The notes below the pieces were generated by a model. It was not told the origin of the DNA. It ran no database searches and worked only from the letters and a program-made list of their open reading frames with translations. Positions 10,461-49,186 of a stretch of 64,000 nucleotides of DNA are shown here, in pieces; the first letter of the stretch is position 1; each line of letters opens with the position of its first letter. The position numbers were made by a program, and so were the translations under genes. The DNA comes from Escherichia coli (GTDB lineage Bacteria; Pseudomonadota; Gammaproteobacteria; Enterobacterales; Enterobacteriaceae): assembly GCF_003018255.1 (NCBI RefSeq), contig NZ_CP027440.1. The stretch is one strand, 5' to 3'.

Positions 10461-12430
<1,970 letters not shown>

Positions 12431-13268: not shown

Positions 13269-15710
13269 TTAATACAGGTTCCGCCACTGATCATCTTCCT
13301 GCAAACGCTGGTTCCGATAGAAGATACGCAGGCCTGCTCCTGACGGAATACTGCCTCCGCGAAGGAGTAAATCGACCTCTTTCTCGCTGCCATCAAATCC
13401 TCTGGACTTCAGCTCATACACGAGCTGCAGTCGCTGATGGTCTGTAATTCGCTGTTTGTAGTCTTTACGCCGTTTCGGTTTCACCAGGCGTAACCTTGCA
13501 GCCAGTTCCCGGCGCTCTTTTTTGCTCATACTGTGCAGGTAATCGTGCAACTCCTTGTCATCCATGCGGGTAATGTCCGTTCTGGTATCCCCATCAGCTG
13601 ATTTGTCTTTCCCTTGTTGGTTCAAATTTTCAGCAAGGGGACAGTTATTGCCACGAGTCCAAGGGGCGCAAGCGCCCTGGTCGGCTGCCGCCTCCTGAAC
13701 GTCAACGGCCTTACGAACCATTTTCCACTTCACTGCATGAGTGCAGATCTTGCCCTCTGCAATGGGTGACCAGATGCCATAAATACGAATACCGTGATCA
13801 CCATAGGCGGTCGGCTCTTCGTTGATTTCATAAGCGGTTCTGATCAAGTGATATTTGCGGGGAACCAGTACGCCGCCCTGCTTCATAATGTAGGTGGCAA
13901 AACAGCCAGCATCAGCAGCAGCCAGAATGGCATCAAGGCGCGGGTTATCCAGTACCGACGCACCTGCTTTTTTGTCACCCTGTTGCCTTGCCGCCTGACC
14001 AGCCAGCAATCGCAGTTCACGGTAAGCCTGACGCCCCGGAATGCCAAAGAAGCGGAATTGCTGAACACGATGCAGAGACGCCCAGGCATTAACGTATTCA
14101 GCATTATCACGCAGGGATTTACCCGTTTCCTTGCTGATCTCGCCAGCCAGACCACGCCCGTCAATGTTCTTACTGATGTATTTCGCGATGTAGCTTGTTG
14201 GCGTACCTTTGCGCGGGTTTATCAGCTCAGACTTAAAGCGTGGCCCCGTGTTATTACCCAGCTCCTCGCGGTCTTCACGAATGGCAAACTTACGCAGCAA
14301 AGCAGTAATGGCGCGGCGATCTTTTTTGCGCATGAAACACAACAGGTGCCAGTGAACTGTGCCGTCATGATGCGGCTCAGCCACCCGCACGCCATACCAG
14401 CGCAACCCGGTTTTGTGCATAGCCTTACGAAATGCAGCAAACATGCCGACCAGATAATCGCTGCTTTGTCTTACCGTCGCGTTTGTCCAGGTCGGGTTTG
14501 GTCTGCCGTTATTGAGCGTGGAATGGAAACGCGACGGACAGGTGATGGTGTAGAAAACGGCACAGTCACTGCGCATTTCCGCGATAAGCTCCAGACCTTT
14601 AACACAGGCCATCATCTCATTGCGGCGATGCGCCGGGTTGCTGCTGCTGGCCTTTACCACATCTTCCATATCCAGCGTGTCGCCGTTTTCGTTCACCAGT
14701 TCATGAGAACGGAAAAACTCCAGCGACTTACGGCGCTGCTCACGTTTATGCATCACGGCTTCATAGCTGACATAGGGAGATGCTTTTTTGCTGACCAGGC
14801 AGACAGCACGCAACTGCTCTTCCCGCCATTCGCAGCGCATCTTCCATAATTTCCGATACCACCAGTCGGCACACAACATACGCGCCAGCGAACCCGGAAT
14901 GAGTTCATAGGGCACGGGTTTGCGACGCTTTCTTTTCCGACGAAGTTGCTCAAACGCAGGCGGGATAACATCCAGTCGCAGGGTTTCCGCTGCCACCTTT
15001 TCCCATGTCTTGCGGATTTCTTCTGGCTTAACATCATCGGTGGCGTACAAATCACCACAAGCGGCATCAAGGCACATGCTCATATGCGCAGCTACCAGGG
15101 TGGACAGGCGTTTCACCTGATCCTGACTCATTTCAGGCAGGATCAGCAGGCCGTCCAGCCCTTCATGGCTCGCCATAAAGCGAAAAGAAGTGGATAGCTG
15201 ACTGTCGCGTACATGCTCCAGCCGTTCCAGACATGGCTTAATCGTCTCACGCAAATAGCGAGAATAAGCCTTTGGCCTGCCCAGGCTGCTGAAGTATTCA
15301 ATACGTTGCATCAGCGGCTTGCTGATATGGGAAGGCTGGGCGTTAACGTCCGCCAGAATGACCATGTCCGGATTAAAACGCTGCTGCTCATGCGCCAGCT
15401 TTGCCCGGCTAATGAGCTTATCCTGCTCCATTTCGCGTTGGACAGGATCACGGGATTCATTAAAGAAATAACGCTCCCAGACCTGATCACTCAGTGCCTC
15501 GCGGCGCAGTTGTTCCTGCTCGTTATCGGCAGCGTACAGAGTGATCAGGTTTGAAAGCGCAGAAACCGGCGCAACTTCCGCCGGGTCCAGATAAGGGTTA
15601 ATGGCTTTCTTAGGTAAATTCCACGAATAACCCCCGGCAGAATTCTCAATGCTACCGGAAGTTACACTGACAAATGGATCGGCAAGACGGCCTGTGCTGA
15701 TCTCTGTCAC
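13269..15710 (-). CDS. Replication initiation endonuclease (P2/186 gpA-like)
   Basis: 813 aa; Y-x-K catalytic-tyrosine-like region (YIAKYISKN); position as in P2/186; start overlaps the upstream stop as ATGA. Confidence 0.85.
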
Positions 15711-16717
15711 TCACAGACTCCTGCATATACACTGCTGCACACCGCTTTATCATTCATGCCTGCCAGCAGGTCAAACTGCATACCGCCCCGAGTTGTTAAG
15801 GCCCAGTCCCGATAAGTTTCAATGCCATAAGCATCAACAGTTATGACTTCGATCCGTTTTTCATCACGGCGCGGATCATGCGTGGATGGAAAGAACGTTG
15901 AATTGCCACGTCTTGAACATTCCGCAACCAGTCTTTCCCACTCAGCCACTCGGCGGATTTCTTCTGGCCAGCGTTGGAAAATCTCAGCAAGTTCTGACTT
16001 GCGAGCATGAATACATGGCATACAACCGACACGACTGCATCCCTGCATATAAAGGGGGTTAGGCTTAATGCCATGACGTTTGGCAATAGCAAACACATCC
16101 TCATGCAGCCAATTAAGGATCGGACGATAAACATGCAGGCCCAGAGTATTGTCTGCATCGTCCTCCCACTCAGGCAACAATGCACGTTCCGGTGATTCCT
16201 GCCCCCGGACTCCTTGCCAGCTGATTACCTCATCGTATTCATCCAGAGCCGGATCGATTACCTGTGTACGTATTGGTTCATGTTTTAGTTCAAAAGTGCA
16301 GAAACGAGCTTTTGTTGAAGGGAAGCGACCTTTCCACATGCACAAATCAAGAAACGGAACGCCGGTTGGTTTAAGGATTTCCAGTGCCCGGTAAATACGT
16401 TCCTCAGCCTCATCTGTCGACATACCACATTCCTCAACGAGAGAAATGGGCCACTTTTCCGCAATGAATTTACGTTTCCCTTCTATCTGGCGTGTGAAAT
16501 CCGCTTTGACGCGAATAATCTTGCCCAGCTTTGATTCCAGATAATCCAGATATTCTATTGTCTGTGGATGTTCATGACCCGTATCGGCAAATACAGAAAT
16601 ATGCGGAACATCGTTTTCAATGGCTCTTAACCATTGAGCGAGACTATCTTTGCCACCAGAAGTAGTGATGATGTTAATGGTGCTTGAAGCAAAGCAACGC
16701 GGATCGATAGCATTCAT
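15707..16717 (-). CDS. PP-loop ATP pyrophosphatase, PAPS-reductase-like
   Basis: SGGKDS PP-loop motif near the N-terminus; C-terminal Cys clusters ([18 protein letters not shown]); ATGA-coupled to both neighbours. Confidence 0.75.
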
Positions 16718-17562
16718 GCGCGTACCTCAACGGTACGGTCAGAGCCGCTGGCAAAATCGACACCAAACCACCCAGCTGATTTGGTGGCAATGATTTCTGT
16801 TGCAGATTTACTCTCGCCAGCTGACACGCCAATGCTGCGTTTTGACTTGATGTAGTGGTGAGTGAAATTGCGATACAGCGAACGGATCAGGGATGTGTCA
16901 CTGTTAGAAACAATGACCGGATGACCTTCAGATGATCGATGTTCAAGAACGGATGCCAGGTGATACTGGTCATCTTCAGTGAAGCCATCAGTGTGATAGC
17001 CGGAAAACGTACCGTCATAAGGCGGATCGCAATATACCACATCCCCCACCTTCAACATCGCCAGCGTTTCATCAAAGCTGGCGCAGATAAACGTTGCCCG
17101 CTGGGCTTTCTCTGCAAATGCGCGAATTTCTTTTTCAGGGAAATACGGATTTTTATAATTACCGTAGGGAATGTTGAAATACCCGCTCTTGTTATAGCGA
17201 CATAGCCCACGGTAACCATGACGATTGAGATACAGAAAATATACCGCTTTCATGAAATCAGTAATTTCAGTGGAGTAATTAAACTCCTGCCTTATGTTGT
17301 AATAAGCCACCTCTCTGTTTGCTTCCTCAAATAAAGCTCTGGCACGAGATATAAACGCCTCACAATCAGCAGCAACCTTTTTATAGAGGTTGATTAAATC
17401 AGGATTAATATCCGCAACCAGATAGCTGGGGTAATCCGTCTCCATCATCACAGCACAAGAACCCGCGAAAGGTTCAACCAGTCGCGGGCCAGCAGGAAGG
17501 TATTTTTTCAGTTCGGACATAATGGCGGTTTTATTACCCGCCCATTTCAGGATGGTGCTCAT
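16714..17562 (-). CDS. dam: DNA adenine methyltransferase (Dam-like, N6-adenine)
   Basis: DPPY catalytic motif and an N-terminal SAM-binding region (FAGSCAV); start at [11 protein letters not shown] overlaps the upstream stop. Confidence 0.85.
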
Positions 17563-17861
17563 ACAGCACCTCCTGCAATAACATATCCTAAAGCTTCTAA
17601 TGGGGTTAATGAGCGAATTGATAGCATCACCCATTGTTCTGAAACTGCCATGACGTCATTAACCGGAAGCACATGAGAGATAACCGCGGCCCATTCCCTA
17701 CCCGTAAATACGCCATGCTTCCATTCGCAAAGAGAAAGAACATCACCAACTTTATAGCCACGATCGTCTTTACGAAGTTCAGCCGTCTTTTGACCTGCAA
17801 CCACAGCGTTGAAATACTTAGGTGCAATTTTTAATTGATGGATACGCACAGCCCCTGTCAT
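17559..17861 (-). CDS. ASCH/DUF3850-like small protein
   Basis: About 100 aa from [44 protein letters not shown] overlap with the TraR-like gene. Confidence 0.55.
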
Positions 17862-18085
17862 ACAGCACCTCCGTTGTAATGTTTGCCTTTCAGCTCTGCG
17901 ATTTCCTGACAGGTAATGCAAAGCTGCACTCCTGGAATGGCGCGGCGGCGTGCTGGCGGAATTGGCGCTTCACATTCAATGCAAAGCACGCGAGACACGC
18001 CCGGTGTTTTGGCACGGGCAGCACGGATATGGCGCTGGCGTTCTTCTTCAACGCGCTGCTGTACGAGATCCATTGCATCAGCCAT
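17858..18085 (-). CDS. TraR/DksA-family C4 zinc-finger protein
   Basis: 75 aa with CIECEAPIP...CITCQ four-cysteine finger. Confidence 0.75.
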
Positions 18086-19148: not shown

Positions 19149-19658
19149 TCACAGCAAACCGAATGAAGCACCGAGGCCAGTCACGGTATCAACTGCACTC
19201 GCCATCGCAGGATTAGCCTGTAAACGGGCCTGCAATGAAACAGCCGCCAGCGCCATCAGTCGTGTTACAGAGTTAATGCTGCTGATAGCATCACGACGAC
19301 CTGCACTGGTTTTTACATCGCCAGATACCGCACCTGCCGCGACACGTCCTATCTCTGCAGTTGCACTCATGACGTAATGCGGCAGTTTCTCTTTTGCTAC
19401 CTCATTAATCGGTACACATGGCAGGCAGTGAATCTGTGCCAGAAAACCATCTACCAGCGTTGAATCTTCAGTCAGATCGGTAAGCAACCAAATTTCTGGT
19501 GCGGTTAATAAATGAGGTTGAGCTGGGTTCAGTTTGTTCCGCAGAATCTGCACATTCATGCCTGCACGTTCTGCCAGTTGCACCAGATTGTGGCGCAGTG
19601 CGAATGCACGACAGGCTTCATCAAAATGTGGATGTTTGGAAACTTGGTAATCAAACAT
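19149..19658 (-). CDS. CII-like transcriptional activator (phage 186 type)
   Basis: [19 protein letters not shown]... resembles the 186 CII N-terminus as I recall it; about 169 aa from the internal Met. Confidence 0.8.
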
Positions 19659-19722
19659 GGTTTTCAACTCCGAACTTATCGCAAAATCGAACTCAGCGTC
19701 TTATTGCGAAAATAGACGTCTA

Positions 19723-19926
19723 TTAAGCAGACAAAGCATCAACAGTCAGAGCAGCCAGGTTAATCATTACCTTTTCACGTTTTTTGTCTTTACGAAGACG
19801 ATGACGAGGTAGTCGGCCATCAGCCAACATGTCGTTAATCGTATCAATAGAAAGGCCAGTCAGTTCGCTATAACGTTCGATTGTGACATGTGGTGTATTC
19901 AGAGTAATTGAAATGTTAGGTGTCAT
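19723..19926 (-). CDS. Apl/Cox-like excisionase and repressor
   Basis: 67 aa HTH protein, first gene of the lytic operon, divergent from CI. Confidence 0.7.
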
Positions 19927-20069: not shown

Positions 20070-20641
20070 TTGTGGATTTCAATAGCGGCGGTAAGAAAGC
20101 CATAGAACGTTTAGTTGAAGCATATGGGTTCGGTACCCGTCAGGCTCTCTGTGATCATTTAGGTGTTTCTAAGAGCACCATGGCAACGCGCTATATGCGT
20201 GATATTTTTCCAGCAGATTGGGTAATCCAGTGCGCCCTTGAAACGGGCACCTCGCTTAATTGGCTAACAACAGGGCATGGTTCAAAGCAAGCATCAGCAA
20301 ATACAAATACTATGGAAGTTGCTAAATATGTATTATCTGATGGGGCCTTGTGTGAAGACGGTTTTTATATTTTCGATAGGGAATTTCTACCGTCGGCATT
20401 CAAGAATATTTTTGCAATCACAGATAATAATTCTGAATTTGTTTGTGATAAGGAATTTGATGATATACGTGATGGTAAATGGGTAATAAGTATTGATGGC
20501 GAAATAACGATCCGTGACATTACTCGTTTACCCGGTGGAAGAATCTTCGTCGAGGGTGGAAACAGAGCCTTCGAATGCAAGATAGAAGACATTGAAATAA
20601 TTGGTAAAATTATAAGTTTAACAGTCAAGTATGTTAAATAG
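19985..20641 (+). CDS. CI-type immunity repressor (186 family)
   Basis: HTH region ([24 protein letters not shown]) plus C-terminal domain; ORF start is probably an over-call, true start likely near the GTG at about 20070. Confidence 0.75.
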
Positions 20642-20657
20642 TACCGGGAGGAAAACT

Positions 20658-20849
20658 ATGCTTGGTAAGGTATTTTTTGTGGTTTTGTCATGTTCTTTGT
20701 TATTAAACCCACTAACTACCTATGCTAGAAATTATCCCTGTTCAGGGAAAAAGGGAGGTGTTTCTCACTGTACCTCAGATGGCAAATTTGTTTGCAATGA
20801 TGGAACTATTAGTAAATCCAAAAAAATCTGTACTAAAAACTCACGATAA
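20658..20849 (+). CDS. Small secreted cysteine-rich protein (moron)
   Basis: 63 aa with signal peptide [23 protein letters not shown] and a mature part with six Cys; AT-rich; sits between cI and int. Confidence 0.5.
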
Positions 20850-21037: not shown

Positions 21038-22081
21038 ATGGCAGTACGAAAACTAACCACAGGGAAATGGCTTTGCGAATGTTACCCCGCCGGACGCAGC
21101 GGGCGTCGCGTGCGTAAACAGTTCGCTACCAAAGGCGAAGCATTAGCTTTTGAGCGTCACACGATGGAGGAGGCAGAAGCTAAGCCTTGGCTTGGTGAAT
21201 CGGTAGACCGTCGAACTCTACAGGATATCGTTGAACTCTGGTTCAAACTGCACGGCAAATCCCTGACCGCTGGCGAGCATGTTTACGACAAGTTGATACT
21301 GATGGTCGATGCTCTCGGAAATCCCCTCGCCACCGATCTAACATCCAAAATGTTCGCGCACTATCGCGATAAGCGCCTGACGGGTGAAATCTACTTCAGC
21401 GAAAAATGGAAGAAAGGAGCCAGCCCGGTAACTATCAATCTGGAGCAAAGCTATCTGAGTGGGGTCTTTAGCGAGTTAGCCCGACTCGGTGAATGGACAG
21501 CACCAAATCCACTGGAGAACATGCGTAAATTCACCATTGCCGAAAAAGAAATGGCCTGGCTGACACATGAACAAATCACAGAGCTTCTGTTCGACTGTCA
21601 ACGCCAAAGCCCCCTGCTCGCTCTTGTCGTCAAAATCTGCTTGAGCACCGGAGCACGTTGGCGCGAAGCTGTGAACCTGACACGTTCTCAGGTCACGAAA
21701 TACCGAATCACATTTGTCAGAACTAAGGGCAAAAAAAACCGCAGCATTCCGATCAGCAAAGAGCTGTATGAGGAAATTGTTGCCCTAGACGGCTTCAAAT
21801 TATTTACTGACTGCTACTTCCAGTTTTTAGCCGTGATGGATAGAACCTCGATCGTACTACCACGCGGGCAACTTACCCACGTTCTACGCCATACGTTCGC
21901 AGCACATTTTATGATGTCCGGCGGGAACATTCTTGCTTTGCAAAAAATCCTGGGCCACCACGATATAAAAATGACTATGCGCTATGCACATCTTGCCCCT
22001 GATCACCTTGAAACAGCACTGCGTTTCAATCCATTAGCCACACTTTCCACTAAAGCAACGAACCTTGAAGCAAACAGCTAA
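21038..22081 (+). CDS. int: Tyrosine integrase (P2/186 family)
   Basis: C-terminal catalytic region HVLRHTFA...MRYAHL; start taken at MAVRKLTTGKW (347 aa). Confidence 0.9.
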   Translation: MAVRKLTTGKWLCECYPAGRSGRRVRKQFATKGEALAFERHTMEEAEAKPWLGESVDRRTLQDIVELWFKLHGKSLTAGEHVYDKLILMVDALGNPLATDLTSKMFAHYRDKRLTGEIYFSEKWKKGASPVTINLEQSYLSGVFSELARLGEWTAPNPLENMRKFTIAEKEMAWLTHEQITELLFDCQRQSPLLALVVKICLSTGARWREAVNLTRSQVTKYRITFVRTKGKKNRSIPISKELYEEIVALDGFKLFTDCYFQFLAVMDRTSIVLPRGQLTHVLRHTFAAHFMMSGGNILALQKILGHHDIKMTMRYAHLAPDHLETALRFNPLATLSTKATNLEANS

Positions 22082-22121: not shown

Positions 22122-22607
22122 ATGTCCGGCATTGCGGATTTTTTTTCAGTTGTGGCTGCAGTTGGGGCAGTTGTAATCATCCCTGCTGCATATCAACCTA
22201 TTTATCAATCATCTAAAACAAAAAACTATGAGTCTTTGGTAAAAGTTGATTGGGGCAATGAAGGTGACATCTCTACTTCTTATCCACATTTCATACATAT
22301 ACAGTTAGAGAAAGCAGAAGGTGATTGGACTTTTTCAGGAGAACTCATCTGCACAATTAATCCCGAAGAAAAGTTCGTCATTCAGGGTAAACTGAGATGT
22401 CTTAGGACTATAGATGCTGTAATACATCGTACTATTGGCTGGCGGGCTATTGAGATTGGAAAGGCTAAAATCAAGTATGACCGCCGCACAAATCAGTGTC
22501 GATTTATCCCACAAAAGGTTGCTCAGAAGAAACTTGAGACTGATTGCGAACGTGCAATCTTCAGCACCAGCCTCCCTTTATGGGGAAATGACAAATCTCC
22601 GGTATAA
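22122..22607 (+). CDS. Membrane-anchored hypothetical protein (moron between int and the prophage end)
   Basis: 161 aa with one N-terminal TM helix (FFSVVAAVGAVVIIPAAY); AT-rich codon usage unlike phage core genes. Confidence 0.5.
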   Translation: MSGIADFFSVVAAVGAVVIIPAAYQPIYQSSKTKNYESLVKVDWGNEGDISTSYPHFIHIQLEKAEGDWTFSGELICTINPEEKFVIQGKLRCLRTIDAVIHRTIGWRAIEIGKAKIKYDRRTNQCRFIPQKVAQKKLETDCERAIFSTSLPLWGNDKSPV

Positions 22608-22709
22608 GTGGCGACAAAGTGGCGGCAGCGGTTGGCATTGTCCCGTAATCGCCACTCCTTATCACTAACCTAACTTATTGATTGTCTTGCAACTCATTGT
22701 TATTTCTAA

Positions 22710-23699
22710 CCCATTTACATAAATGGCAATAAAGTTGAGCTATACGGCAAGATGGTTGGTGAGCGAATTCTGACCGACCGTGAAAATGGTGAAAAAGGCG
22801 ATAATTCTCAAGATACCTCTTATGCCCGTGTAGGCGTGAAAGGTGAAACTCAGATCAACCCTGAACTGACTGGTTACGGTCAGTTTGAACTAGACCTGGA
22901 AGCATCAAACAGACACAACCCTGACCAAACTCGTTTGGCATATGCTGGTTTGAGTTACAAAGATTTTGGTTCATTCGACTACGGTCGTAATGTCGGTGTC
23001 GCGTATGATGCAGAAGCATTTACTGATATGTTTGTTGAGTGGGGCGGTGACTCATGGGCTGGTACTGACCTGTTCATGACCAACCGTACCAACGGTGTTG
23101 CAACCTATCGTAACACAGATTTCTTTGGCATGGTTGAAGGTCTAAATTTTGCTCTGCAATATCAGGGTAAAAATGAAGGTACAGGCAACTACAAAGCAAA
23201 TGGCGATGGCCATGGTTTATCTGCAACTTACACTATTGACGGTTTCTCATTTGCTGGTGCTTATGCAAACTCTGACCGTACTGATTGGCAGTCTGGTGAT
23301 GGTAAAGGCGAAAGAGCCGAAGTTTGGGCGTTGTCAACAAAATATGACGCTAACAATGTCTATGCTGCTGTGATGTACGGTGAATCTCACAACATGAATT
23401 CCGACGACGGTGATGTTGTGAACAAAACACAAAACTTCGAAGCTGTTCTGCAATATCAGTTCGACTTTGGTCTGCGTCCATCCATCGGTTACTCCTATTC
23501 TAAAGCACTGGACGTAGCAGGTTACAAAGATTCTGATCGTCTGAACTATATTGAAATCGGTACCTGGTATTACTTCAATAAGAATATGAACGTATATACC
23601 GCTTATCAGATCAACCTGCTTGATAAGAGTGATTATGTTCTCGCTCATGGACTGAACACCGACGACCAACTGGCAGTTGGTATCGTCTACCAGTTCTAA
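22710..23699 (+). pseudogene. General porin gene (OmpC/OmpF/OmpS family), 5'-truncated
   Basis: Reading frame aligns to OmpC from about mature residue 3 onward (PIYINGNKVELYGK, then the C-terminal AVGIVYQF), but the signal peptide and promoter are absent and an in-frame stop lies at about 22707. Position upstream of hchA matches yedS in K-12. Confidence 0.7.
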
Positions 23700-23741: not shown

Positions 23742-23780
23742 AGCCTGAGTTCGTCCCTCATCGAACTCAGGCTTTTTTTA
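23742..23780 (+). terminator. Rho-independent terminator after the porin gene
   Basis: Hairpin CCTGAGTTCG...CGAACTCAGG followed by a T-run. Confidence 0.6.
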
Positions 23781-24294: not shown

Positions 24295-25146
24295 ATGACT
24301 GTTCAAACAAGTAAAAACCCGCAGGTCGATATTGCTGAAGATAATGCATTCTTCCCTTCAGAATATTCGCTTAGCCAATATACCAGTCCCGTCTCTGATC
24401 TTGATGGTGTGGACTATCCAAAACCGTATCGCGGTAAACATAAAATTCTGGTGATCGCCGCGGACGAACGTTATTTGCCGACCGATAACGGAAAACTGTT
24501 CTCGACCGGTAACCATCCGATTGAAACGTTGCTGCCGTTGTATCATCTCCACGCTGCAGGTTTCGAATTCGAAGTGGCGACCATTTCCGGTCTGATGACC
24601 AAGTTTGAATACTGGGCTATGCCACACAAAGATGAAAAAGTAATGCCATTCTTTGAGCAGCATAAATCGTTGTTCCGCAATCCGAAGAAACTCGCGGATG
24701 TTGTCGCCAGCCTCAACGCTGATAGCGAATATGCAGCAATCTTTGTTCCTGGTGGTCATGGCGCACTTATTGGTTTACCTGAAAGCCAGGACGTAGCTGC
24801 CGCTTTACAGTGGGCAATCAAAAATGACCGTTTTGTTATCTCCCTTTGCCACGGCCCGGCGGCTTTTCTGGCGCTTCGCCACGGCGATAACCCACTGAAT
24901 GGTTATTCCATTTGCGCATTCCCAGACGCCGCAGACAAACAAACGCCAGAGATAGGCTATATGCCGGGTCATCTCACCTGGTACTTCGGCGAAGAGCTGA
25001 AGAAAATGGGCATGAACATTATTAATGACGACATCACCGGGCGAGTACATAAGGACCGTAAAGTTCTCACCGGCGACAGTCCTTTCGCAGCGAATGCGTT
25101 GGGTAAACTGGCGGCGCAGGAAATGCTGGCAGCTTACGCGGGTTAA
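24295..25146 (+). CDS. hchA: Hsp31 glyoxalase III / protein deglycase
   Basis: 283 aa; DJ-1/PfpI-like sequence recognised as HchA. Confidence 0.9.
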   Translation: MTVQTSKNPQVDIAEDNAFFPSEYSLSQYTSPVSDLDGVDYPKPYRGKHKILVIAADERYLPTDNGKLFSTGNHPIETLLPLYHLHAAGFEFEVATISGLMTKFEYWAMPHKDEKVMPFFEQHKSLFRNPKKLADVVASLNADSEYAAIFVPGGHGALIGLPESQDVAAALQWAIKNDRFVISLCHGPAAFLALRHGDNPLNGYSICAFPDAADKQTPEIGYMPGHLTWYFGEELKKMGMNIINDDITGRVHKDRKVLTGDSPFAANALGKLAAQEMLAAYAG

Positions 25147-31154: not shown

Positions 31155-31244
31155 TGGCGGAGAGAGGGGGATTTGAACCCCCGGTAGAGTTGCCCCTACT
31201 CCGGTTTTCGAGACCGGTCCGTTCAGCCGCTCCGGCATCTCTCC
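31155..31244 (-). tRNA. serU: tRNA-Ser (anticodon CGA)
   Basis: Minus strand reads GGAGAGATGCCGGAGCGGCTGAACGGACCGGTCTCGAAAACCGG...CTCTCCGCCA with a long variable arm. Confidence 0.9.
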
Positions 31245-31337
31245 GTTCAGATGGTTGCCATGATGCCAGGAAATTTGGCATTTTAACAGTCCCTGTCCGT
31301 GCAATTTTGTTCAAGTGACGAGTTTGCGAGCAAAACG

Positions 31338-32135
31338 ATGATTAAGTGGCCCTGGAAAGTACAAGAATCAGCACATCAAACTGCCCTTCCCTGGCAGGAA
31401 GCACTATCGATCCCCCTTTTAACGTGTCTGACGGAACAGGAACAAAGCAAATTAGTCACTCTTGCCGAACGTTTTTTACAGCAAAAGCGGCTTGTTCCTT
31501 TACAGGGCTTTGAACTGGATTCATTAAGAAGCTGCCGGATAGCACTTCTATTTTGCCTGCCCGTTCTGGAGTTAGGACTGGAATGGCTGGATGGTTTTCA
31601 TGAAGTCTTAATTTATCCTGCGCCATTTGTGGTCGATGATGAATGGGAAGACGATATCGGTCTGGTGCATAACCAACGTATTGTTCAGTCAGGTCAGAGC
31701 TGGCAGCAAGGGCCTATCGTTTTGAACTGGTTGGATATACAAGATTCTTTTGATGCTTCTGGTTTTAACCTGATTATTCATGAAGTCGCTCATAAGCTGG
31801 ACACCCGTAACGGCGATCGCGCCAGCGGAGTTCCCTTTATTCCGTTGCGTGAGGTTGCTGGCTGGGAACACGATCTTCATGCTGCAATGAACAACATTCA
31901 GGAAGAAATCGAATTGGTTGGCGAGAATGCGGCGAGCATTGATGCTTATGCTGCCAGTGATCCTGCTGAATGTTTTGCCGTACTTTCTGAATATTTCTTT
32001 AGCGCCCCAGAACTTTTTGCTCCACGTTTCCCTTCATTGTGGCAACGTTTCTGCCAATTTTATCAACAAGATCCTTTGCAGAGACTGCATCACGCTAATG
32101 ATACAGACTCGTTTTCGGCGACGAATGTTCATTAA
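31338..32135 (+). CDS. mtfA: Mlc titration factor A
   Basis: Start MIKWPWK; HEXXH-type motif (HEVAHKLD). Confidence 0.9.
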
Positions 32136-32235
32136 TTAACAACTTTGCAGATTAATTAACCAATTGAAATGACTTATGAAATTTAGTGTTGACAGACAAA
32201 GTACCGCTAAGTAATATGCGCCCCGTTCACACGAT

Positions 32236-32311
32236 TCCTCTGTAGTTCAGTCGGTAGAACGGCGGACTGTTAATCCGTATGTCACTGGTTCGAGTCCAGT
32301 CAGAGGAGCCA
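32236..32311 (+). tRNA. asnT: tRNA-Asn (GUU)
   Basis: TCCTCTGTAGTTCAGTCGGTAGAACGGCGGACTGTTAATCCG...AGGAGCCA. Confidence 0.95.
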
Positions 32312-32623
32312 AATTCTAAAAATTCGCTTTTTAGCGCAATGTCACTGACCTTAGTTGAGCATTGCTTTTTAACGGATAGCGGGTTTTTGACATCTTAAGC
32401 GCCCTCGACCTTTATGGTTGAGGGCGTTTTGCTATGAACGCCATCACCATTTTCCCCTCGATTACAAAACTTGAGTAATTCAGTAGTCTCCCCTCTTGCA
32501 ACTCACACCCAAAACTGCTTAACGAAAAGTTATTAATTTTCAATCATATTGCTATCAGGATTTACATTTTTTCGCTGTGCTAGAAAGGGCGCATTTATGT
32601 TAGCTCGTTCAGGGAAGGTAAGC

Positions 32624-48771: not shown

Positions 48772-48929
48772 ACCTTAAGTGCAGCCCTGGTGCCTGTCGG
48801 CACTGCGATGAAAGAACTAAATGATGCCGCCATACCCTGATCCTTTCAGGGTGGTAGGGGTATAAAGACGCGCCTGTACTCTACTGGACGCTTCCGGGCA
48901 ACCCACTTCCCACCGAAGTTGTTGGTAAT

Positions 48930-49075
48930 GACTGACTGGCTGGTCTTCTGGCTTAGCGTCATCCTCTCCCGACCTTCCCAATCTCGCGATCAGTGGCATT
49001 TTCGGGTTTGTCAGCATTACAGCAGCGGGGGCTGCGAGGGATTTTCACCCTCTTCCCAGGCACAAATGTGCCACA
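48930..49075 (-). promoter_or_regulatory. Cobalamin (adenosylcobalamin) riboswitch aptamer, cbi-leader type
   Basis: Minus strand reads GGGAAGAGGGTGAAAATCCCTCGCAGCCCCCGCTGCTGTAA...GCCACTGATCGCGAGATTGGGAAGG...AGCCAGAAGACCAGCC, matching conserved riboswitch core and B12-box consensus. Confidence 0.8.
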
Positions 49076-49186
49076 CCTGTCAGCGTATGTTATGAGCTGA
49101 TTTCACTTTTCCCATAACAGGTAAATAACGTTAATTATTCATTGCAGAGTTTATTTAAACCGTCCTCTTTTTTTGGGGCATTTACT

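Follow-up and report, generated by a model that had tools for sequence, protein, structure and literature searches.

A P2-like prophage end within the porin gene yedS of Escherichia coli, probably at a secondary attachment site

The window, a stretch of 64,000 nucleotides from Escherichia coli (contig NZ_CP027440.1), opens inside a prophage, of which it holds the right-hand ~22.7 kb (positions 1–22726), from the interior of baseplate gene J to the right attachment site attR, with the genes in the same order as in the compared loci L006 and L020. The whole prophage would measure ~34.8 kb and is P2-like (Peduoviridae) with a 186-type switch. Annotated prophages have their genes in the same succession (W, V, S, R, lysis, L, M, N, O, P, Q, cargo, A, cII, apl, cI, int), and Pfam assignments for L013 and L015, both 99.99% identical, are in agreement; the P2-type morphogenesis genes follow the P2 order and a divergent cI versus apl-cII switch is present. 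A cII-type regulator of the Phage_CP76 family (19149–19667, minus strand) was assigned by Pfam, L013 6398–6907 corresponding to window 19149–19658. It is followed by an ORF of 67 residues in the apl position (19723–19926, minus strand; assigned by position) and by the CI immunity repressor of 189 residues (20072–20641, plus strand; Pfam Phage_CI_repr and Phage_CI_C). Between cI and int lies a small gene for a YdcA-family lipoprotein (20658–20849). The words 'YdcA family protein' in the matches suggested integration at the ydcA locus, but they refer in fact to this small phage gene. The tyrosine integrase (347 residues; 21038–22081, plus strand) is transcribed towards att; Pfam Int_N and Phage_integrase domains were found on the identical gene of L013 and L015, the gene is annotated 'phage integrase' in L002, and NCBIfam gave weak Xer/integron matches. 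ORF161, a cargo gene of 161 residues between int and att (22122–22607, plus strand; stop codon 22605–22607), had no PADLOC or NCBIfam match. Look-ups for another ORF of the window, at 248–784, were empty, and it is probably not a real gene.

The cargo spot between portal gene Q and replication gene A holds a fusion of a retron Ec67-type reverse transcriptase with a Toprim endonuclease (10461–12401, minus strand; PADLOC RT-Toprim_I-C, 719 bits; NCBIfam retron_Ec67_fus, 704 bits against a cut-off of 450), and no Rfam family was matched at this ORF. Extra cargo beside gene A (15707–17940, minus strand) encodes a PAPS-reductase-like protein (336 residues), a D12 adenine methyltransferase and a DUF3850/ASCH protein, according to Pfam labels taken from the identical locus L013; this block may be a DNA-modification module. 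The otherwise near-identical EC21Z-137 phage is without the PAPS-reductase and DUF3850/ASCH genes and keeps the adenine methylase. In related phages the spot between cI and int holds variable cargo (a DUF4041 protein, a KAP P-loop NTPase or an SMC-like ATPase), and the spot between int and att holds ORF161, a 110-residue ORF or a Panacea/SocA-domain protein; examples of variable cargo are found at L004 348–2024, L005 1063–2394 and L008 1–1423.

Beyond ORF161 lies the P arm of attR, non-coding phage DNA (22608–22726, plus strand) that is identical to the arm of the same phage at rcdA up to 22726; in genomes with the same phage located elsewhere, phage homology stops exactly at this base. The arm contains two direct repeats, AACTTATTGATT (22672–22683) and AACTCATTGTTA (22691–22702), which are putative arm-type Int sites. 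The 22-nt motif TGGCGACAAAGTGGCGGCAGCG / TGGCGACAAARTGGCGGCAGCG occurs once on the P arm (22609–22630) and once, in the same orientation, on the P' arm (L020 8143–8165; L057 7432–7453). In the circular phage its two copies would flank the core ~100 bp off on either side, and the motif is a candidate binding site for the Int arms or for the Apl excisionase. The last six bases, AAATGG (22721–22726, plus strand), make up the left end of the canonical 14-bp core ATGGGTTTTTTGTT; in alignments of attR, attL, the intact porin and the primary site, they are the sole stretch common to attP and the yedS allele of the window. In attP of the PhiECO1 class the core is preceded by the hairpin arm AACCCATTTACATAA; the window holds the P side only, to ...TAAATGG, and the P' side (GTTTTTTGTTGCC...) is known from the sequences of relatives. 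A perfect inverted repeat in attP, AACCCATTTA-CA-TAAATGGGTT followed by TTTTGTT, looks like a terminator (−9.7 kcal/mol by folding). The window carries half of this hairpin, AACCCATTTA-CA-TAAATGG (22708–22726), with porin sequence in place of the U-run and the hairpin down to −3.7 kcal/mol by folding. No tRNA and no Rfam family were found at the junction.

Host sequence resumes with a general porin gene of the yedS type, of which the 3' portion is present (22727–23699, plus strand); it comprises 93% of the gene, beginning at the third position of codon 29. Base 22727 is the first that can be assigned to the host without ambiguity, and phage and host homology overlap in AAATGG. Megablast/blastn matches to E. 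coli porin genes begin at 22713–22723, depending on the allele compared; the apparent porin 'IY' at 22713–22718 arises because the phage arm looks like porin there, its ATTTACATAAATGG resembling ATTTATAATAAAAATGG of the porin and translating as I-Y-I-N. That the prophage boundary coincides with a 5'-truncated porin gene, as the initial annotation proposed, is thus borne out, with the phage ending at 22726 and the host beginning at 22727. The porin start had been placed at about 22710, at mature residue 3; the abrupt start stands, whereas the position was slightly early, since the junction lies at 22721–22726 and mature residues 1–6 are missing. The in-frame stop seen just upstream is the TAA at 22707–22709 (plus strand), supplied in the porin frame by the phage arm. 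The reported lack of a start codon, signal peptide and promoter also holds: the frame runs uninterrupted from 22710 as far as its stop codon (23697–23699), the first in-frame ATG, at 22752, is precursor Met38, and no sigma-70-like promoter was found on the plus strand between 22092 and 24203. Because the phage TAA is in frame and there is neither start codon nor export signal, no porin can be made.

Translated from 22722, the remnant is identical at 325 of 325 positions to residues 28–352 of the intact 352-residue porin of strain A3; what has been lost is the 21-residue signal peptide and mature residues 1–6 (AEIYNK). The remnant carries the whole 16-strand porin domain (Pfam Porin_1), and the NCBIfam profiles for PhoE, OmpF and OmpC were matched from position 28–29 to the end with scores below the equivalog cut-offs, implying that it is a paralogue of these porins. 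At the junction site an intact yedS of the window type reads ...TAT AAT AAA AAT GGC AAT AAA GTT G... (Y-N-K-N-G-N-K-V; AAAAATGGCAATAAAG). The intrinsic terminator of the porin gene follows at 23742–23780 (plus strand; 12-bp stem and T-run). Next comes hchA (24295–25146, plus strand), the usual downstream neighbour of yedS according to the ORF list and neighbourhood comparison, and the order hchA-hprS-hprR past the remnant is the normal E. coli yedS neighbourhood. With a complete and otherwise undamaged porin 3' part in its usual chromosomal place, the feature is not a product of chance. The host part of the window is otherwise ordinary E. coli backbone, with tRNA-Ser, four tRNA-Asn genes and a cobalamin riboswitch upstream of cobUST (31155–44703; 48921–49095). 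The best complete-genome match was only 98.7% over 21 kb, and closed genomes therefore cover the source lineage poorly.

The junction in the window lies in yedS and not at ybjL-rcdA, the site that the same phage uses in other genomes. The primary attB is the ybjL terminator in the ybjL-rcdA intergenic region, with the 14-bp core given above, which was derived by comparing attL and attR at the rcdA site with the P' arm from several genomes. The empty K-12 site reads ...CCCATCAACC...GGTTGATGGGTTTTTTGTTATC, a hairpin of −23 kcal/mol and then a U-run. The ybjL-rcdA site corresponds to the 'PhiECO1' integration-site class (Nilsson et al., 2011; PMC3448106), and the P2-like prophage of E. coli HS adjoins rcdA (bioRxiv 10.1101/2024.06.12.598711). 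Of 5426 complete E. coli genomes, 1123, about a fifth, carry the rcdA-side junction. In five complete genomes the same phage end adjoins rcdA, with int, ORF161 and the arm 99.7–99.9% identical, and contig L031 has, beside rcdA, a phage that matches the window at 99.957% identity as far as 22726. From these alignments the porin gene appears to be a rare secondary attachment site, with 4–6 bp of identity to the 14-bp core.

The use of porin genes recurs. At the yedS site at least five different P arms were found (that of the window with L015; L014; that of L017 with L019; L032; and OkiPb01675), and the yedS attL contigs carry at least six different tape-measure alleles, indicating that several phages or several events used this site. 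The insertions span two yedS alleles and at least three host backgrounds. The yedS contigs L013, L015, L029 and L030, 99.985–99.99% identical to the window, are read from their sequences as one clone and not as a sign of site preference; the exact ORF161 protein occurs on 24 long contigs, beside hchA (yedS) on 23 and beside rcdA on one. At the homologous codon (...TAT AAC AAA GAT GG|C AAC AAA...), ompF is split by related prophages in two of the 5426 complete genomes, both from clinical strains, namely HZ13 (NZ_CP128609.1), a human isolate from Hangzhou with no sample source recorded, and the ST131 isolate 4224 (NZ_CP103592.1), from blood in Houston. The ompF attL of 4224 is reciprocal. Strain 4224 is a double lysogen with one prophage at ybjL-rcdA and one in ompF (L054 3224–36477; L005/L057), and the two copies have identical accessions for all proteins compared (CI, YdcA-family, KAP NTPase, Int, ogr, D, U and T). 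In HZ13 the primary attB is empty with its core intact (L056 10330–10360) and the phage is in ompF, so that occupancy of the primary site is not required for use of a porin site; an account in which the phage turns to a secondary site only because its primary site is taken holds for 4224 and fails for HZ13. The primary site of HZ13 differs from that of K-12 only by a T-to-C change in the terminator stem, 5 nt left of the core (GGCTGATGGG versus GGTTGATGGG). The short-read contigs L019 (1–30) and L017 (1–75) start exactly 30 nt (k−1) before the phage-porin junction; such breaks would arise at a de Bruijn branch if the P arm had two continuations in the sample, through another copy of the prophage, free attP or a mixed population.

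Both ends of such an insertion can be seen in the complete genome of OkiPb01675, where a related 33.5-kb prophage, its int with ~86% nucleotide identity, occupies the same porin position. It is flanked on one side by drpB and a 90-nt porin 5' fragment and on the other by the porin 3' part and hchA. Its attL reads ...AAAGATGG|GTTTTTTGTTGCC (in longer form ...TACAATAAAGATGG|GTTTTTTGTTGCCCG) and its attR ...CATAAATGG|CAATAAAG (in longer form ...TTTACATAAATGG|CAATAAAGTTGA); the junctions are reciprocal and no host DNA was lost. For the window type, a 33-codon attL fusion ORF was predicted from the intact window-type yedS allele and the phage P' arm, and the predicted peptide was found exactly on at least 23 public contigs, each time between drpB and phage ogr/D. 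These attL contigs end ~8.0 kb into the phage, at the invertase gene, and the attR contigs of the window lineage begin 24.6 kb before the porin ORF; the breaks are consistent with one ~34.8-kb prophage with an invertible tail-fibre segment between. Reciprocal attL/attR junctions are thus observed in OkiPb01675, in ST131 4224 and, for the yedS allele of the window, on the attL contigs, the window itself covering the attR side. We infer that in the window genome the porin 5' end is retained at attL, ~12.1 kb to the left of position 1. This attL would consist of drpB and the first 80 nt of yedS, fused as ...AAAAATGG|GTTTTTTGTT, with yedS nt 1–80 ending in ...GAAATTTATAATAAAAATGG and followed by GTTTTTTGTTGCCTGAAATTTAAGC and ogr.

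The same-lineage contigs L013, L015, L029 and L030 either end before attL or are not walkable to it, and no complete RefSeq E. coli genome spans the window junction. A scan of the GTDB species representatives for the junction pattern found nothing. GPW proved too conserved to serve as a lineage marker (28,594 blocks). The tape-measure allele of L022 was found at both sites, with no named contig of the window's lineage among its carriers. A 91.8-kb contig with attL, reached via the tail-fibre-region protein of L021, was set aside as a different phage, with 96% identity and an extra DUF6216 gene.

The truncation of yedS is very probably explained by Int-mediated recombination of a P2-like phage into a secondary site within the gene. 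Of the two origins offered in the initial annotation, integration into the porin 5' end is accordingly favoured over a later deletion, on account of the canonical att end, the reciprocal junctions of OkiPb01675 and the attL fusion ORF on at least 23 contigs. A deletion that removed the porin 5' end up to the phage end, after integration nearby or upstream of yedS, has in its favour that the window stops short of attL and that yedS is prone to other inactivating lesions. However, such a deletion would need to end precisely on the canonical base 22726, within the 6-bp core identity, the same junction recurs with different phages, in two yedS alleles and in ompF, and the reciprocal attL junctions keep exactly the 80 nt that are missing; it is very improbable. 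Similarly hard to sustain is an integrase of changed specificity, for which the porin N-terminal coding sequence would be the primary attB. The phage with ORF161 does sit at yedS on 23 of the 24 longest contigs, but these 23 are near-identical and probably represent one clone, the same int and P arm (99.96–99.9% at the nucleotide level) are found at rcdA in L031 and the five complete genomes, and among the 5426 complete genomes porin sites are occupied in three (two in ompF, one in yedS) against 1123 for ybjL-rcdA, which leaves this explanation scarcely probable.

A different arrangement would result if integration into yedS had been followed by recombination, giving a recombinant prophage or a chromosome rearranged between the related prophages at ybjL-rcdA and yedS, in which case the partner end may not lie beside drpB. 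Strain 4224 shows that the same phage can occupy both of two sites in a double lysogen, the same tape-measure allele occurs at both sites, and the break of L019 exactly k−1 = 30 nt before the junction hints at two continuations of the P arm. Yet the 23 long contigs of the lineage are collinear with the window across the junction and there is no direct evidence of an inversion, making such a rearrangement improbable.

Direct Int-mediated insertion into yedS suggests the following course. A temperate P2-like phage with a 186-type CI/Apl/CII switch and a PhiECO1-class module would have been inserted by Int into yedS, with strand exchange restricted to the shared AAATGG, a microhomology at the core's left edge. 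The resulting attL would keep the promoter, the signal peptide and mature residues 1–6, fused to phage DNA as the 33-codon ORF, and attR, the end present in the window, would keep residues 7 onward behind the in-frame phage TAA. In every porin event the sequence to the right of ATGG is that of the phage at attL and of the host at attR, and the crossover therefore took place in, or at the edge of, (AA)ATGG. Of the 14 bp of the core, the window allele shares AAATGG, and the other yedS allele and ompF share ATGG. Right of ATGG, yedS reads CAATAAA-GTTG and ompF CAACAAA-GTAG, versus GTTTTTT-GTTG in attP; yedS and attP thus have an A/T-rich 7-mer and then GTTG at the same spacing. The overlap region would begin at ATGG, with the porins homologous in its left part only and the exchange halted by heterology, and on these alignments the crossover was presumably limited by heterology within the overlap region. 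Excision would be expected to restore the porin gene. A crossover at the centre of the attP inverted repeat (TTTACA) was also considered and fails to reproduce the observed junction sequences. Motifs of 4–6 bp are not unique in the genome, and the repeated targeting of porin genes goes beyond what microhomology explains.

Prophage insertion is one of several lesions of yedS. The same truncation in prophage-free strains, which the initial annotation had named as an argument against its reading, is matched on the surface only: an ORF of 315 residues identical to that of the window is called there (L010, L011, L016, L012 and L018), but the cause is a 1-nt deletion or IS1. In L010, L011 and L016 one nucleotide is deleted in the signal-peptide codons; L012 has IS1 after codon 33 with a 9-bp duplication, and L018 has IS1 within the signal peptide (lesions at L010 9885–10020, L012 9100–10020 and L018 1–130). 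One of the IS1 target duplications, AAGTTGAGC, lies 7 nt downstream of the phage crossover point. yedS is a pseudogene in K-12 as well. As the gene is often dead by other lesions, its loss in the window genome probably matters little. The suggestion that loss of a porin receptor next to a prophage could matter for phage resistance found no support, since nothing examined ties YedS to phage adsorption and yedS is inactivated in other ways elsewhere.

For annotation, yedS is here a pseudogene split by a prophage, and the boundary at 22721–22726 marks attR of a P2-like prophage that appears to be complete. Beyond this genome, a very common family of E. coli prophages has a recurrent secondary target in porin genes, ompF included. 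Loss of OmpF is a recognised contributor to beta-lactam and tetracycline tolerance, and the ompF insertions are potentially more relevant than the loss of yedS; the lesions sought by routine resistance pipelines are IS elements and point mutations rather than a 34-kb prophage. It is conceivable, though unlikely, that the DNA of the porin mature N-terminus (YNK[ND]GNK: ...AAA RAT GGC AAY AAA GT...) is a genuine, repeatedly used alternative attB and that the prophages act as precisely excisable switches of ompF and yedS. If so, a channel used by antibiotics, colicins and phages would be lost on integration, a change that could be selected in clinical strains, and excision would restore the gene exactly.

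The closest known relatives are the PhiECO1-class prophages of E. coli HS, CFT073 and ATCC 8739 and of Salmonella Typhi (PhiSEN1), with which the phage of the window shares gene order, the 186-type switch, the integrase family, the P arm and the phage end to the base. Whereas these prophages reside at ybjL-rcdA, the phage of the window interrupts a porin gene whose identity with the core is limited to AAATGG. Lysogeny at secondary sites is classical for P2 and lambda. Besides locI, P2 uses the secondary sites locII, locIII and locH (Bertani and Six; Barreiro and Haggard-Ljungquist, 1992). As in P2, a preferred site is accompanied by rare sites with partial core identity, and double lysogens occur (4224). 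In contrast to P2, the integrase and the core are different, and the secondary site of the window type lies in coding sequence, with insertions in either of two porin paralogues. Klebsiella phage 4LV2017 (Elveevirus) and Escherichia phage vB_EcoM-813R9 have an integrase of ~80% nucleotide identity and nearly the same attP (...AACCCGTTTACATAAATGGGTTTTTTGTTGCC), the annotated att of 4LV2017 being ATGGGTTTTTTGTTGCCTGC; they differ in host and cargo, and no porin insertion was seen for either. In a search of the full-text literature, no report of P2-like prophages in yedS or ompF was found, only a study of lambda, in which insertion outside the normal site, into ompF, made cells more tolerant of tetracycline under laboratory conditions (Tanouchi and Covert, 2017; PMC5605937). 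The type of event, secondary-site lysogeny, is therefore known, and the recurrent porin target is without report in the literature searched. In the lambda study, likewise, a porin was disrupted at a non-canonical site and drug susceptibility was altered without transfer of a resistance gene. That study was a laboratory screen with lambda Int, whereas the porin events described here, known from sequence, were found in natural isolates, involve a P2-like Int and fall at one precise codon. The knock-out of porin genes by these prophages is thus recurrent, yet mechanistically ordinary.
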